NCBI GenBank assembly: GCA_964636545.1
Contig: CAZWSR010000009.1
Coordinates: forward strand, 1 to 28,347
Origin: Candidatus Undinarchaeota archaeon
GTDB taxonomy: Archaea; Undinarchaeota; Undinarchaeia; Undinarchaeales; UBA543
DNA: 28,347 nucleotides
Direction of reading: 5' to 3'
Positions within the stretch are counted from its first letter, which is position 1, and each line of letters starts with the position of its first letter. A model generated the notes under the pieces. It did not search any database, was not told where the DNA came from, and saw nothing but the letters and a program-made list of their open reading frames with translations. Shown piece after piece: positions 14,101 to 28,347 of this stretch. The position numbers were made by a program, and so were the translations under genes.

Positions 14101-14332
14101 ACATATCTGGTTTTTTCTTTATGTTTAACCCTTTAGCTATCAAAACTTTGCGGGATACAAATCCAGCAAGCTTGTTTCTAACCATTTTGCTTGGGCTGTT
14201 TAGGGTACCATCGTTTATCATTTGCTGTAATTCTTTTTTGTTATGGTCAAACTCAGGCGTAAAACGCTCTGCGTCCTTTTCCATAAGTGCTTTTCCTATT
14301 CTCTTGATAAACTTCTGTTTTATACTTCCCAT
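14090..14332 (-). CDS. rps17e: 30S ribosomal protein S17e
   Basis: MGSIKQKFIKR...FTPEFDHNK...SKMVRNKLAGFV. Confidence 0.94.
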   Translation of the reverse strand: MGSIKQKFIKRIGKALMEKDAERFTPEFDHNKKELQQMINDGTLNSPSKMVRNKLAGFVSRKVLIAKGLNIKKKPDMYGE

Positions 14333-14382
14333 CGTGCTTTTTTAATCAGGTACGGGGTTTATAAATTTATGCTATTTGTTAA

Positions 14383-14457
14383 GATTTTGGAATTTAGAAT
14401 TTGGAATTTAGAATTTGGGGTCAATTCTAAACTCAAAAATCTAAACTCTAAATTCTA
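14383..14457. repeat. Inverted pair of heptamer arrays (gaatttR x5 / taaaYtc x5)
   Basis: gattttg-gaattta-gaatttg-gaattta-gaatttg ggg tcaattc-taaactc-aaaaatc-taaactc-taaattc, between the divergent rps17e and corA promoters. Confidence 0.8.
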
Positions 14458-14500
14458 TGTGAAACTTAACTTTATAAACCAACATCTACTATTTGTCCAT

Positions 14501-15544
14501 ATGGAAAAACCAACAAAAAATCCGATTTCTGTTGGGAAATCTATTGTTATTAAAACTAAGAACCCAACAGTTCTTCGAGTTCTTGATTATACAAAATCTG
14601 GTGTTATTGACAGAAAACTTACAAATGTTAAAGAATGTTTTAAATTTAAAAACAAGGCATCTGTGTCTTGGATTAATATTACTGGAACACCCGATACGAA
14701 TTTTTTGAATTCACTTGCAAAACATTTCAAGCTCCATCACCTTACACTTGGAGATTTATCTAATCTTGAACATCGCCCAAAATTTGAAAATCTTGAAGAT
14801 TATTTGTTTCTTATTCTTAAATTAGTATATTATGATGAAATAAAGAAAGAAGTGCGTACCCAGCAAGTTGGAATTATTCTTGGGCAAAAATTTGTTTTGT
14901 GTTTCCAGGAAAAAGAAACTGATGTTTTTAATAAAATAATCAAGCGGATAAAGGATAGCAACGATAGAATCAGAAGAAACAGTACAGATTATCTAGTGTA
15001 TGAACTGGTTGATTCAGTTATTAATAATTATTTTATTGTTCTTGAAAAACTGGAAGATGATTTGGAGCGCATAGAGAAAGAAGTTTTACAGGATCCAAAT
15101 GAGCATACTTCATGAATGATTCACAAGATTGAAAGTGAGATTTTGTTTTTGCGAAAGTCAGTCTGGCCATTAAAAGAAGTAATAAACAGTCTGGAGAAAA
15201 TTGATTCAAAATTAATTAAAAAACCAACTAAAGTTTATCTGCATCACGCATATGACAGCATAATTCATGTGACTGACTCGCTTGAAACTTTTCGGGAAAT
15301 GAATTCAGATATGCTTAATATTTATCTTTCAAGTGTGAATAACCGAATGAATGAAGTAATGAAAGTGCTTACAATTATTGCAACAATTTTCATTCCACTT
15401 ACTTTTATTACTGGATTGTACGGGATGAACTTCAAATTCATGCCGGAATTGTATATGCGATTGGCGTATCCTGCGGTTTTGGGTATAATGGGCGCTATTT
15501 CACTTGGTATGGTGATTTATTTCAAAAGGAAGAAGTGGTTCTGA
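14501..15544 (+). pseudogene. corA: Magnesium/cobalt transporter CorA interrupted by one in-frame TGA (15113-15115); split gene or nonsense allele
   Basis: SWINITG, HRPKFE, LRKSVWP, MNEVMKVLT and YGMNF..MPEL motifs; both parts in the same frame, 347 codons if joined; TATA at 14471-14478. Confidence 0.85.
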
Positions 15545-23280: not shown

Positions 23281-23495
23281 GATGTTTTCAGAAAAATAAG
23301 ATGTTGCAACAGGAATACTATGTCTTTCTTCAATCCATTTTTCAAGAAGCTCATCCAGTTTTCCAATATTTTTTTTTGAGTAATTTGTCTATATTTTGAA
23401 TTACACCTTTAAATGCACGATTTTTTATTTGTATCATATTGATAATGTTTACTTGTTTTCTATCTTTAAATTACTTTCTTTAAGTGAAAAAGTAG

Positions 23496-23581
23496 TGCGG
23501 GGGGAGAGATTCGAACTCTCGAAAGCACTAAGCTACAGGATCTTAAGTCCTGCCCATTTGACCAAGCTCTGGTACCCCCGC
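23496..23581 (-). tRNA. tRNA-Leu (UAA)
   Basis: Cloverleaf with GCGGGGG/CCCCCGC acceptor, CAGGA-CU UAA GA-UCCUG anticodon arm, long variable arm and GUUCGAAUC T arm; CCA not encoded. Confidence 0.95.
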
Positions 23582-23688
23582 GTTGGGTGTCATGCTCAAG
23601 CAAAACTTGAACAAACATTTTTATTACATTTATGCTCCTGTTTGCGCTGAGTTTCGTCAGAGAGGCGACACACAACGCGGAGCGGAAT

Positions 23689-23764
23689 TGGTAGCCCCGA
23701 GCGGATTCGAACCGCTGTCATCAGCTCCAAAGGCTGGCATGATTGACCACTACACTACGGGGCT
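23689..23764 (-). tRNA. tRNA-Gln (UUG)
   Basis: A1-U72 pair typical of archaeal tRNA-Gln, CU UUG GA loop, GGUUCGAAUCC and encoded CCA; C27-A43 mismatch. Confidence 0.95.
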
Positions 23765-24851: not shown

Positions 24852-25634
24852 TTATTCACTCATTATCCCATTAATTCCAACAATAATTTTCTTTAATGGA
24901 ATTTCTTGTCCAGAGTCACTTAATGCCTGTTCTACTGCATCATAAAGCCCATAACAGCATGGAACTTCCATTATTGCAACAGTAATTGTTTTTAGATTAT
25001 TCATTTTTATAATTGATTGGATCTTTTCTTTATATCCAGAAATATCATCAAGTTTTGGACAGCCAATAGCAATACTTTTCCCTTTTAACAGTGTGTTATG
25101 CAAATTAGGGTTTGCAAATCCAACACAGTCAGCTGATATTAATAAATCAGAATTTTGGAAAAAAGGCACATTTGGTGGCAATAAATTCAACTGGATTGGC
25201 CATTGTTTTAATTGAGAGGTTTGTTCCTTGCTAGTTTGATCTGGTTCAGCATCAGGTTCCTCTCTTAAATCCCTGACCATTGTTCCTGGGCAACCGCAGG
25301 GAAGCTCTTTTGGTTTTTCTTCAGTTGGTTTTGCCTTTTCTTCAAGTGGATTTTCTTCTAGTTCAGGTTTTCCAATATCTTTCAGATGCGTGTTAGTTGC
25401 TTTAAAATCAAATTCTTCAACATCCCGTTCAATAATCTTAATAGCATCCTGTGGACAATGGCCTAAACAATTTCCTAGGCCATCGCAATAGATATCTTTT
25501 ACTAACTTTGCTTTACCATCAACTATTTGCAAAGCTCCTTCGTGGCATGACGTTATACATAAGCCGCATCCATCACATTTTTCTTCATCTATCTCTACTA
25601 TACTTCTCTTTACCATAGTTCTTTTCACTAACAT
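24852..25634 (-). CDS. 4Fe-4S ferredoxin-domain protein with C-terminal Cys-rich domain (type often found near hcp/stress genes)
   Basis: CDGCGLCITSC, CDGLGNCLGHCP, CGCPG, WPIQL, ADC, GCPKLD and MEVPCC motifs; start may be 25616. Confidence 0.85.
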   Translation of the reverse strand: MLVKRTMVKRSIVEIDEEKCDGCGLCITSCHEGALQIVDGKAKLVKDIYCDGLGNCLGHCPQDAIKIIERDVEEFDFKATNTHLKDIGKPELEENPLEEKAKPTEEKPKELPCGCPGTMVRDLREEPDAEPDQTSKEQTSQLKQWPIQLNLLPPNVPFFQNSDLLISADCVGFANPNLHNTLLKGKSIAIGCPKLDDISGYKEKIQSIIKMNNLKTITVAIMEVPCCYGLYDAVEQALSDSGQEIPLKKIIVGINGIMSE

Positions 25635-25645
25635 ATGCTGTGTTC

Positions 25646-25822
25646 TTAAGCAGCAGCAAGTATTTTTTTGTTTATAGCCTTTGCGCTTGCACGGTTCTTT
25701 AATTCACCAATTTTTCCCATGTTCCACGAATTTACTTTGGAAAAAAATCCTGTAACTCGTGTCATGATTTCTATTTTGTCAGAGCCGCATTCTTGGCAAG
25801 TTCCAAGTTGTGTTTCAGTCAT
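25646..25822 (-). CDS. Stand-alone class III ribonucleotide reductase (NrdD) glycyl-radical-domain-like protein, 58 aa
   Basis: MTETQLGTCQECGSDKIEIMTRVTGFFSKVNSWNMGKIGELKNRASAKAINKKILAAA*; AGGAGGT SD 7 nt upstream; not in the ORF track. Confidence 0.85.
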   Translation of the reverse strand: MTETQLGTCQECGSDKIEIMTRVTGFFSKVNSWNMGKIGELKNRASAKAINKKILAAA

Positions 25823-25852
25823 TTTTTGAACCTCCTAATGTTCTAATACTTG

Positions 25853-25897
25853 GTATACAAAAGATACTTATATAGGGTAGAGTTTCTAAAAAGATAG
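25853..25897. promoter_or_regulatory. Divergent promoter with shared TATA and two candidate HxlR-family operator sites
   Basis: gtat-acaaaag-atac (25853-25867), ttatatag (25868-25875) and gtttc-taaaaa-gatag (25882-25897). Confidence 0.45.
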
Positions 25898-25898
25898 T

Positions 25899-26258
25899 AT
25901 GGAAAAGAATTGTACTGTTTACAAAACAATGGATTTTGTAGGAAAGAAGTGGACGATACTGGTTTTGCTAGAATTATACAAAGGCGATCAGAAGTGGAAA
26001 CGCTATTCTCAAATCAAAAGAAAAATGCCGGATATTACTCCAAAAATTCTTTCTGCAAGATTAAAAGAATTAGGGGCGAAAGGTATGGTTAAAAAACGAG
26101 TGGATGCAAGCAAATTTCCAATCAAATGTGAATATAGCTTAACTAAAAGCGGAAATGATTTTGTAAATATCGTTGGTGATATTAAGAAATGGTCTTTAAA
26201 GTGGAAAATTAAAAGCAAGCAGTGTAGCAGTACAATGTGTAAATATTGCAAGTTATGA
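25899..26258 (+). CDS. HxlR/DUF24 (MarR-like) redox-sensing transcriptional regulator
   Basis: NCTV...VGKKWTILVL, ITPKILSARLKEL and EYSLTKSG; N-terminal Cys plus C-terminal CxxxxCxxC. Confidence 0.9.
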   Translation: MEKNCTVYKTMDFVGKKWTILVLLELYKGDQKWKRYSQIKRKMPDITPKILSARLKELGAKGMVKKRVDASKFPIKCEYSLTKSGNDFVNIVGDIKKWSLKWKIKSKQCSSTMCKYCKL

Positions 26259-26312
26259 TTTGAACTGACCAGCAATTAAAAACTTTATAAACCAGTTTTG
26301 CCTAGTTATTTT

Positions 26313-27215
26313 ATGAAAAACATTATTCTTATATTAATTTTGATAATTGCAGTTTTTGCAAGCGGCTGTGTAAAGATCGAAGACGGTTCTCAAATTGAAA
26401 CAATGCCATCTCAAATTGGGGATGCTCCAGAAGAGGAAGATAATTATTACACAGAACCAGTTCCAGATCCAGTTGAAACAATTACAATTTTAGTTGACAG
26501 TCCGGAAAAAGAAGAACCTAAACCATCTTCTGTAGAGTCAGATTCTCTTCTTCCAAAAACTTCACTACTTGGAAATGATCTAAAAAGAATGAACAAATAT
26601 GTTTCTGATAATCCTGAATATGAACGATGTCCGTACAATGAAATGGGACTTTACAATGTTAATGATGTTGGTAATAGAGCAAAATATGCCATCTTGATTT
26701 ACAAATGCAGAAATGAACAGGAAGCAATTGATCACTTTAAACACAAAACTTCTTCAGTCAGTTTTTCATCTATTGATGGGTACGGTACAGAAGCAAAAAC
26801 AATTGGGGATAATGTGAAGTTCTATTATGGAATTTATTATGTTGATGTTGGTGGTTATAATTCAGATGCAAGAATGAATGTTGCTCATGATTTATGGACT
26901 AAAGCTTCTGATCATGTAAAAGAATTATATGACGGAACAGCTCCTGTAGATGAGGCCCCAACTGATTCTGAAACTTCTGGGACTGAAGAACCAATTGAAA
27001 TTTCTTGTAGAATAGGTACATCTCCATCAGAATTTTACAATAAAGATGGTCACGCAACACTTTACACTTGTCCAGATGAAAAGCCACAGTGCCATATTTC
27101 ATCTTCCAGAGATCATGGTAGGGCCATGTGCTGCAAAGAGAAGATAATTAAGAAAGAGTATTATGATTCAACTGAATTAGTTGAGTGTACTGAAATCTTG
27201 TTTAAATATAATTAA
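26313..27215 (+). CDS. Putative lipoprotein/surface protein with Cys-rich C-terminal module
   Basis: MKNIILILILIIAVFASGC lipobox-like signal, acidic Pro-rich linkers and six Cys in the last 70 aa. Confidence 0.75.
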   Translation: MKNIILILILIIAVFASGCVKIEDGSQIETMPSQIGDAPEEEDNYYTEPVPDPVETITILVDSPEKEEPKPSSVESDSLLPKTSLLGNDLKRMNKYVSDNPEYERCPYNEMGLYNVNDVGNRAKYAILIYKCRNEQEAIDHFKHKTSSVSFSSIDGYGTEAKTIGDNVKFYYGIYYVDVGGYNSDARMNVAHDLWTKASDHVKELYDGTAPVDEAPTDSETSGTEEPIEISCRIGTSPSEFYNKDGHATLYTCPDEKPQCHISSSRDHGRAMCCKEKIIKKEYYDSTELVECTEILFKYN

Positions 27216-27592
27216 GATTTCCACAAACCATGGATATTGCAATTAGCTTCAGCAAATAGCACTTTTCCTTTTTCTTCAAATTCAACTTCTGGAAGATCAC
27301 CTGGTTTCAAAACTTTCCATTGGCTTTTTCCATTTTCAACAAAAATTCCAATTCCGCCAATAAAATGTTTTTCTTCCATTGGATGCGGTACTGAACCAAC
27401 TTTTACTTTAACTCCAGTTGGTGTTTTTTCAATAACTGGCACATGTTTTTCATTTCCTTCTTCCTCTATTGTATGCGCTTTTATCAAGTTCATTGGTTTT
27501 CCACAACAAACAAGTTCTCCGACTCCAGCATGCAGGACTTTTATAACATTGTTACAAATTTCACATATGTAAACTTGATTGTTTTCAGTCAT
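27212..27592 (-). CDS. dfx: Desulfoferrodoxin (2Fe superoxide reductase)
   Basis: CEIC...CCG desulforedoxin domain; EKHVP, HPMEEKH and CNIHGLW. Confidence 0.95.
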   Translation of the reverse strand: MTENNQVYICEICNNVIKVLHAGVGELVCCGKPMNLIKAHTIEEEGNEKHVPVIEKTPTGVKVKVGSVPHPMEEKHFIGGIGIFVENGKSQWKVLKPGDLPEVEFEEKGKVLFAEANCNIHGLWKS

Positions 27593-28107
27593 TTTAACCT
27601 CTCTTCTGAAAGTTGCAAGTGGTCAATTTCAACATCTATAATTGCTTCAAATAGTTCTTTTATTCGTTCATTATCAGCTTCTTCAGCAGCTTTTTTGTAA
27701 AATTCAATTGCTTTTGTTTCTAGAGCATGCGAATCTTCAAGATTTTTTGTGTATTCCTCACTGCATTCTTCTTTTCCTTCTGGAGTTTTATCAAGTTTCA
27801 ATACTTTTTTCCAAATACTTGCATGTTCTGCTTCAACTTTTCCAAGTGTTTTGAAAAGTTTCTGAGCTTCAATTCCTGGAGTTTTCTTTGCAGCGCAGAA
27901 ATAGAATTCTGCATTACTTACTTCAACTTCAAGAGCATGCTCCACATTTTTCTTGTCAGTTTCAGTTAATGGAACATCAAAATTAACTTCTGCTTCTTGA
28001 ATTTCCAAAATAAATTTGCCTTTTGCACCGCAAAAAGGACAATTAGTTGGCGCAGCTGCCCCAATATAAGCATCTCCGCATATTTTACATCTCCAAAGTT
28101 TAACCAT
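27589..28107 (-). CDS. Reverse rubrerythrin-like protein (N-terminal rubredoxin, ferritin-like domain)
   Basis: WRCKICG...CPFCGA followed by E..N..FY, EAEH, E...IEFY and EIDH diiron motifs; ATG 28107 with GAGG SD. Confidence 0.88.
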   Translation of the reverse strand: MVKLWRCKICGDAYIGAAAPTNCPFCGAKGKFILEIQEAEVNFDVPLTETDKKNVEHALEVEVSNAEFYFCAAKKTPGIEAQKLFKTLGKVEAEHASIWKKVLKLDKTPEGKEECSEEYTKNLEDSHALETKAIEFYKKAAEEADNERIKELFEAIIDVEIDHLQLSEERLK

Positions 28108-28108
28108 T

Positions 28109-28347
28109 TCAATATTCCTCACATTTTAATTGATAATAAGCTCGTGAATGATTGCAAGCTGGGCATTTTTCAGGAGGTTCTATTCCTGTGTGCATGTATC
28201 CACATTCTCTGCATACCCAAGTCATTTCCTTATCTTTTTTGAAAATAGTTCCAGCTTCAAGTTCTTTCAAAAGTTTTTGATATCTTTCTTCGTGGTGTTC
28301 TTCTGCTTTTGAAATTGATTTCAGACGAGCTGCAATTTTTGAAAATC
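28109..28347 (-). CDS. rbr: Rubrerythrin, C-terminal part (5' truncated by window)
   Basis: ...ISKAEEHHEERY...WVCRECGYMHTGIEPPEKCPACNHSRAYYQLKCEEY*. Confidence 0.93.
   Translation of the reverse strand, partial: FSKIAARLKSISKAEEHHEERYQKLLKELEAGTIFKKDKEMTWVCRECGYMHTGIEPPEKCPACNHSRAYYQLKCEEY

Follow-up and report, generated by a model that had tools for sequence, protein, structure and literature searches.

A stand-alone NrdD-type glycyl-radical subunit in an archaeal oxygen-defence cluster, a probable replacement part for a class III ribonucleotide reductase split into two chains

The window, which is the whole 28,347-nt stretch of DNA analysed and represents contig C9 of an archaeal genome (G000, 840 kb, 83% complete), contains a 58-aa gene for a stand-alone glycyl-radical subunit of NrdD, a ribonucleotide reductase (RNR) of class III. 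This gene provides a further, separately regulated copy of the small Gly subunit of an NrdD that is itself split into two chains and encoded on another contig, C4. As read from its sequence and context, the 58-aa protein is probably a replacement glycyl-radical subunit for this two-piece enzyme, regulated by oxidative or nitrosative stress. Two of the alternatives given in an earlier note on this DNA, an additional radical-bearing piece and a subunit of a naturally split NrdD, are both true at once.

Results

The 58-aa gene encodes a conserved NrdD glycyl-radical subunit

The small ORF with a perfect Shine-Dalgarno sequence, which had been noticed from the sequence alone, is confirmed at 25646..25822 on the minus strand. 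It starts with ATG, and the sequence AGGAGGT is located 7 nt before this codon (25830-25836, minus strand). The protein contains the motifs CQECGS, TRVTGFF and WNMGKIGELKNR, with the second CxxC of NrdD at C9/C12 and the radical Gly at position 25 (codon 25748-25750, minus strand). An HMM comparison with the NrdD C-terminus, suggested in the earlier note, is positive. Positions 522-560 of 562 of PF13597 (NRDD) match the ORF with an E of 2e-9 (37.1 bits, where the cut-off is 26.2), which is its sole Pfam match, and positions 539-580 of 581 of the NCBIfam model TIGR02487 match it with an E of 3.9e-10. When Prevotella copri NrdD (8p23) is aligned to a profile of the 58-aa ORF and seven relatives (E 2.6e-8), Gly25 is opposite Gly711, the radical residue of that enzyme (PMC11226230). 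The protein sequence is NrdD-specific by these three comparisons, and the class III RNR tail, an R(V/I)xG(Y/F) loop followed by (W/F)NxGK..E...R, is found in it. The monomer fold of the protein is predicted without confidence (pLDDT 60.8, pTM 0.29).

The residues that are invariant among 28 small subunits, among them the Gly, both Cys and WNxGK..EL..R, are all kept in the 58-aa protein. Orthologues are found in the same context in two genomes of the same genus, G001 (86% identical) and G002 (93% identical), and are likewise preceded by purine-rich ribosome sites akin to AGGAGGT; the three genomes are 78-83% complete. The dN/dS values in the three pairwise comparisons of G000, G001 and G002 are 0.15, 0.13 and 0.14 (about 0.09 for hxlR). 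The 58-aa gene is under purifying selection, with its frame and ribosome site intact in three species. Two features that had been regarded as odd are native ones. Of the two CxxC pairs, the split assigns one to this piece and the other to the C-terminus of the barrel ORF, and F in place of Y after the Gly is the usual reading, RVTGFF, in the full-length NrdDs of the same clade.

The gene is located in an oxygen-defence cluster

The neighbours named in the earlier note are identified by Pfam and NCBIfam. A gene for a two-[4Fe-4S] ferredoxin-domain protein (24852..25634, minus strand; Pfam) begins 11 nt downstream of the 58-aa gene and is probably co-transcribed with it. This gene is also located 3' of the orthologues in G001 and G002, the G002 copy being cut by the contig end. 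Divergent from the 58-aa gene is that for an HxlR/DUF24 (MarR-type) regulator (25899..26258, plus strand; E 4e-23), in which the N-terminal Cys5 is conserved and of which the best NCBIfam matches are the redox regulators RrpB/RrpA, below cut-off. Desulfoferrodoxin/superoxide reductase (SOR; 27212..27592, minus strand; TIGR00320 over cut-off) is encoded 1.38 kb from the 58-aa gene, as claimed (about 1.4 kb). It is accompanied by the genes for two rubrerythrins on the minus strand, one with an N-terminal rubredoxin-like domain (27589..28104; Pfam), whose start was chosen by comparison with G001 and G002, and the 3' part of a classical one (28109..28347), which is cut by the contig end and is complete in G001 and G002. 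The hxlR, SOR and rubrerythrin context is the same around the orthologues, and this cluster is the only O2-defence cluster detected in G000. The slot between hxlR and SOR is filled by different genes in the three genomes; in the window it holds a 305-aa ORF (26298-27215, plus strand) with a lipoprotein-like signal and no Pfam match. Elsewhere in the window, the tRNA-Leu(taa) and tRNA-Gln(ttg) genes are found about 2 kb from the 58-aa gene (23495-23764, minus strand), and two abutting in-frame ORFs of 290 and 142 aa with one stop codon between them are found at 14243-15544 (plus strand), presumably the two halves of a CorA-type transporter.

The stretch of about 45 nt between the 58-aa gene and hxlR is nearly invariant in the three genomes. 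It contains a TATA-like element (25867..25874; TATATAAG on the minus strand), which is invariant in the three genomes and probably serves both divergent genes, and two candidate HxlR operator boxes. Box 1 (25853..25867; GTAT-N7-ATAC) is also invariant and is located between the TATA box and the 58-aa gene, and box 2 (25882..25897; GTWTC-N6-GATAG) is a putative operator as well. The half-sites of both boxes resemble the operator of Bacillus subtilis HypR, GTATCAAAATTGATAC (PMC3351151). The N-terminal Cys of DUF24 regulators senses oxidants, and HypR is an activator, not a repressor (PMC3351151). HxlR may bind at these boxes, to activate or to repress transcription. A box-2-like box is found upstream of hxlR at four of eight loci of another archaeal phylum, where hxlR adjoins a stand-alone Gly-domain gene. 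The sequence GTAT-N7-ATAC alone has nine matches in G000 and is hence not unique; as a genome-wide regulon motif it was rejected, with 23-36 matches in five shuffled versions and no enrichment.

NrdD of this archaeon is encoded as two chains

The earlier note had reported no catalytic NrdD barrel in the window, and none is found on contig C9 by profile search. It had also suggested a check of the genome for nrdG and for a full-length nrdD with its own Gly loop; nrdG is present, a full-length nrdD is not, and the barrel on C4 has no Gly loop. A PF13597 profile search of G000 gives three matches. The barrel ORF on C4 (651 aa; G000:C4:68009-69964) covers positions 1-517 of this profile and stops shortly past the first CxxC. 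It is directly followed, after a gap of 2 nt, by a 67-aa ORF (G000:C4:67803-68006) that is preceded by a GGAGGT site and in which the second CxxC and the Gly loop are found. Next come a 100-aa ORF and nrdG. The 100-aa ORF is called thioredoxin-like from its CPNC motif and has no match to Pfam and NCBIfam at the cut-offs used. The barrel passes the cut-off of TIGR02487 (394.9 bits), and the activase passes that of TIGR02495 (NrdG2; 191.8 bits). The barrel contains an ATP-cone-like N-terminus, HxHD, an ECCR finger loop and EQTPAES. The finger loop has no Met, which points by sequence to the thioredoxin-type NrdD subclass, for which this absence is a mark (PMC9669993, section 2.5). The Cys pairs of the predicted zinc site are divided, one CxxC being present in the 58-aa ORF and the other at the barrel C-terminus. 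Upstream of nrdD on C4, between it and a divergent ArsR-family gene, a GTTCGG-N6-CCGAAC palindrome, a second similar site and a run of 7-nt repeats are observed (L001:3424-3643).

The same split of nrdD is found in G001 and G002, with gaps of 3 and 1 nt, so that the junctions are in three different frames. Frameshift or read-through at the junction is ruled out by these gaps of 2, 3 and 1 nt and by the Shine-Dalgarno sequence before the small gene. An assembly error is ruled out as the source of the split, because the same cut is found again in other archaeal groups. In a quick tree of 56 barrels, from which L045, L046, L154, L024, L200 and L030 were left out by a motif filter, the 13 barrels with this cut after the first CxxC form one group (SH-aLRT 87). 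Neither a class I or II RNR nor a PFL-like enzyme or PF01228 domain over cut-off was found in G000, G001 and G002, genomes that are 78-83% complete.

Another split of NrdD is seen in a different clade (L028, L051 and L053, in G003, G047 and G027 respectively), with the cut after the zinc motifs, an MCCR finger loop in the barrel and subunits of 43-75 aa with RVVGY or RPVGY. Paralogues of about 610-740 aa that are NrdD-like and contain neither a recognisable finger-loop CCR/GCR nor a Gly motif are encoded at L054 (partial), L055, L057-L060, L207 and L208.

The 58-aa gene is a second copy of the operonic subunit

The 58-aa protein is 69% identical to the operonic 67-aa subunit, with 33 of 38 core residues the same, and its C-terminal tail differs consistently from that of the operonic copy. 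These shared core residues leave no sequence mark of a repair specialist in the 58-aa protein. At synonymous sites the stand-alone and operonic copies have diverged strongly (pS 0.54-0.91 over the core), which indicates that the duplication is older than the split of the three species. The 58-aa gene does not directly follow a truncated barrel, as this place is taken by the 67-aa gene, and the nrdD operon has its own regulator, other than HxlR. According to the earlier note, the peptide would be simply part of a split enzyme if the NrdD of the genome lacked the Gly domain. The NrdD does lack it, but the 58-aa gene is not simply the other half of a split enzyme, because the operon has its own small subunit; the gene is a paralogue of that subunit. 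Likewise, the idea of a spare for anaerobic RNR fails in this genome in its strict YfiD form, where the client would be one chain that includes a Gly loop, and is retained for an extra small-subunit copy beside the operonic one. Such a copy beside a split NrdD is found only in this genus and in G062. It is absent from all 14 other split-NrdD genomes searched, so that split enzymes in general do not need a spare.

Stand-alone Gly domains are associated with stress genes in other lineages

The small-subunit alignment, used as a query, yielded 52 loci from genomes, one viral locus and, from metagenomes, the best 80 of 477 matches; further fetched regions were added to these. The loci were classed by script; 24 duplicate or ambiguous views and contig-edge and fragment rows were left out, and one misclassified full-length gene was moved. 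The core markers were rubrerythrin, SOR, rubredoxin, flavodiiron protein, Hcp and peroxiredoxin, identified with Pfam and NCBIfam, with those for SOR and rubrerythrin confined to the catalytic domains; one "Hcp" marker was a CO dehydrogenase and was dropped. Of 27 stand-alone loci, 12 have a gene for a core O2/NO-detoxification enzyme within 4 kb; of 143 full-length or split nrdD loci, none has. Co-occurrence of the homologues with stress genes, which the earlier note had proposed to examine, is thus observed. Where the flank reaches 4 kb or more, the counts are 12/24 and 0/87. The markers had come from stand-alone loci, and the counts of 12/27 and 0/143 are unchanged when self-matches are barred. 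The stand-alone loci are related, so that Fisher values overstate the association, which is carried by about four or five independent lineages. No core stress enzyme is encoded that close to the other 15 stand-alone loci, among which a four-genome Thermoplasmata clade has a housekeeping context.

Stand-alone Gly domains of other types are also found. Eleven of 201 genomes in the class of G064 (Thermoplasmata) encode a Cys-free type of about 100 aa, and nine of these also encode a full-length NrdD. The Cys-free type is encoded by 28 of 121 genomes in the phylum of G066 (27 also with a full-length NrdD), and a third, Cys-rich type by 12 of 61 genomes in the phylum of G030 (10 also with a full-length NrdD). 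The latter two phyla served as held-out sets, fetched once the markers were fixed. Core enzymes are encoded within 4 kb of the stand-alone genes at 14/28 loci in the G066 phylum and at 4/11 in the G030 phylum, where L269, a contig-end piece of a full gene, was left out. When the Rrf2, Fur, HxlR, Isc or 4Fe-4S families are included, the counts are 27/28 and 8/11. In background sequence, taken as twenty arbitrary 20-kb stretches from these genomes, no core match is found in the 180 kb and 60 kb scored, and matches of the extended markers amount to 1.5% and 0%. The regulators beside the stand-alone genes (HxlR, Rrf2, Fur and AsnC) and the N-termini vary across phyla. The exact YfiD-like layout, that is a full-length NrdD together with a stand-alone Gly domain in a stress cluster, is common in other lineages. 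The NrdDs of the G066 phylum group with Saganbacteria and Margulisiibacteriota records in the tree of 56 barrels, and two tandem full-length nrdD paralogues, each with a Gly loop, are typical of this phylum (L079, L081, L083, L085, L086, L090, L167 and L198).

Homologues of the 4Fe-4S protein of the window (46-59% identical), a family which we take to be FrdX-like, are encoded within 4 kb of stand-alone Gly-domain genes at 15 loci outside the genus, six of them with Hcp. The pairing of hcp with frdX is known (PMC1274295).

Over 26 residues around the Gly, stand-alone proteins match the NrdD of their own host with a score of 454, as compared with a shuffled-host mean of 391 (21 pairs, p 5e-5; p 3e-4 for the 12 Thermoplasmata pairs alone); 5 of the 21 match their own host no better than other hosts, and kinship alone can yield host matching. 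Some split barrels are followed by a gene of the Cys-free type. In these, both CxxC are retained and the chain stops a few to about 20 residues further on, as in an O2-cleaved NrdD. Such barrels arise at least twice among the full-length enzymes in the tree of 56 barrels, which suggests that a Cys-free spare part became obligatory in them. The N-terminal 62 residues of the Cys-free type are predicted confidently (pLDDT about 85) as a helix, three strands and two helices (L094:698-994 and relatives), and its Gly loop is not. A Foldseek search of this type against the PDB gives no match at E<=0.001. By this model, the 62-aa domain is a candidate recognition domain for cleaved NrdD.

Several further arrangements are observed. 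A small glycyl-radical subunit is fused to a thioredoxin-like domain at L116:1201-1665, L119:3722-4252, L120, L133 and L148. A truncated barrel immediately precedes it in L116, L119 and L133; the contigs of L120 and L148 are short and carry no barrel. Judged from its sequence, this fusion would unite the radical tip and the reductant on one chain. At L089:6700-8102 and L049:5098-6144, stand-alone genes adjoin an nrdG-like activase and are distant from the full-length nrdD that the genome also encodes. A 53-aa CxxC-type stand-alone domain is encoded near a phage capsid gene in a head/tail-like module (L187:7998-8156, identical to L193 of a viral collection), and a further stand-alone copy is found on a phage-like contig (L165:5366-5716).

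Discussion

The 58-aa protein is likely to act as a stress-induced replacement for the small subunit of the two-piece NrdD by the following mechanism. The protein would dock on the barrel, complete the four-Cys zinc site in trans and set Gly25 beside the finger-loop Cys, and NrdG would install the radical on it. Glycyl-radical enzymes are cleaved by O2 at the Gly (PMC8683613, PMC12288474), cleavage of class III RNR by O2 is published (PMC12288474), and NO destroys the radical of class III RNR and damages its activase (bioRxiv 2025.02.23.639758). In the two-piece enzyme, O2 would cleave, or NO would quench, the radical-bearing small chain, and the barrel would be left intact. The Cys-bearing HxlR may then sense the oxidant and, through the box beside the TATA element, induce both the spare copy and the 4Fe-4S protein; the latter may serve to feed or repair NrdG. 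A fresh small subunit would exchange in, and dNTP synthesis would resume without the barrel being remade. In relatives with a single-chain NrdD, stand-alone domains with other N-termini may do the same for the O2-cleaved enzyme, as YfiD does for pyruvate formate-lyase (PFL).

The 58-aa protein may instead be a functional second small subunit that serves dosage or as an isoform and is made constitutively or in response to a non-oxidative cue, and its stress-gene neighbourhood would be incidental in the genus. The near identity of its catalytic core to that of the operonic copy, the housekeeping contexts of the stand-alone genes at L213-L215, L217 and L095, and the variable slot that parts hxlR from SOR in all three genomes are consistent with this explanation. 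We consider it unlikely, however, as only 0.6% of the G000 assembly is within 4 kb of a core stress marker and the stress association is seen again in other phyla with different N-termini and redox regulators. A stress context suits protection as well as repair, and the distinct C-terminal tail may also fit a protective or regulatory decoy, which would occupy the barrel or titrate NrdG so that the operonic subunit escapes activation and cleavage, or would be a sacrificial radical sink. A decoy would not need all the residues that are invariant among the small subunits, but the 58-aa protein keeps them all, and we regard this role as quite improbable.

That the gene is a duplicated nrdD 3' end in decay, or encodes the partner of another glycyl-radical enzyme, is very improbable. 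No barrel is encoded nearby, and G000 is 83% complete, so that another enzyme could be unassembled. Decay, which the earlier note had listed as an alternative, is nevertheless rejected by the dN/dS of 0.13-0.15, and a frame and ribosome site that are undamaged in all three species argue against it as well; another partner is opposed by the NrdD-specific sequence and by a search of G000-G002 that gave no PFL-like barrel and no PF01228 domain over cut-off. A stress-regulated replacement subunit remains the best explanation of the 58-aa gene.

On a wider scale, the chances are slightly in favour of class III RNRs having a widespread and repeatedly invented family of spare parts, with at least three unrelated N-terminal designs (the half zinc-finger of the 58-aa gene, the folded Cys-free domain of about 60 aa and the Cys-rich domain) and a host-matched Gly loop. 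These parts would belong to O2/NO regulons of HxlR, Rrf2 or PerR/Fur, often with an FrdX-like ferredoxin, and would be obligatory in several lineages. In such lineages the barrel would have lost its own tip, at least twice for the Cys-free type, to give an RNR of two subunits whose radical cartridge is disposable. On this wider reading, the present archaeon would show both states together, the cartridge enzyme and its stress-regulated refill.

[quoted passage not shown] A literature search, mostly of open-access texts without supplements or RNRdb, whose sequence tables may list split NrdDs, gave no paper on a split NrdD or an NrdD spare part; in the available portions of PMC9669993, PMC4390871 and PMC9531940, "split" refers to class II enzymes or is used in unrelated senses. 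The 58-aa gene would extend the idea of an autonomous glycyl-radical cofactor to a second enzyme class, in a form that genomics indicates to be real, conserved and mechanistically specific. Annotation pipelines call such proteins NrdD or leave them unnamed, and thereby hide them as fragments. The stand-alone NrdD genes are concrete, small and easily expressed spare-part candidates for the essential anaerobic RNR. If they act as proposed, they would explain how DNA synthesis restarts after exposure to O2 or NO in anaerobes in which no other RNR is found. With a natively two-piece NrdD, the installation and transfer of the radical could also be examined on a chain of 58 residues.

Comparison with known systems

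The split class II RNR NrdJa/NrdJb resembles the present enzyme in having a barrel and a separate C-terminal chain that bears a zinc finger (PMC9669993). It differs in that it is B12-dependent and its detached chain has no radical, and no spare copy is mentioned for it in the available part of that article. The single-chain NrdDs of the double-Cys, thioredoxin-type subclass with their NrdG (P. copri 8p23, Thermotoga maritima 4coi and phage T4 1h78) share with the enzyme of G000 the barrel motifs, CxxC...CxxC, the Gly loop and WNxGK..E...R, as well as NrdG2 and, in the operon, a thioredoxin-like gene. In the genus, by contrast, all three genomes encode the chain in two genes, with the cut between the CxxC pairs, and a second small-subunit gene is present on another contig of G000.

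The closest parallels to the 58-aa protein are the Escherichia coli protein GrcA/YfiD and the phage T4 protein Y06I, which serve PFL as autonomous glycyl-radical cofactors. Each is a small stand-alone copy of the C-terminal radical piece of an O2-cleavable glycyl-radical enzyme, with viral carriers as well (here L187/L193), and activation by the enzyme's own activase and action in trans may, by analogy, be common to them. The 58-aa protein is of the NrdD type (PF13597), not of the PFL type (PF01228), and is missed by a PF01228 search of G000, in which no PFL is found. According to PMC8683613, YfiD and Y06I are constitutive, whereas the 58-aa gene adjoins that of a redox regulator. G000 has no full-length client with its own Gly loop. 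The client is natively two-piece, so that the 58-aa spare would replace a whole subunit and complete the zinc site rather than patch a chain that has been cleaved. By this comparison, the 58-aa protein is not a member of the GrcA/YfiD family but probably works like one.
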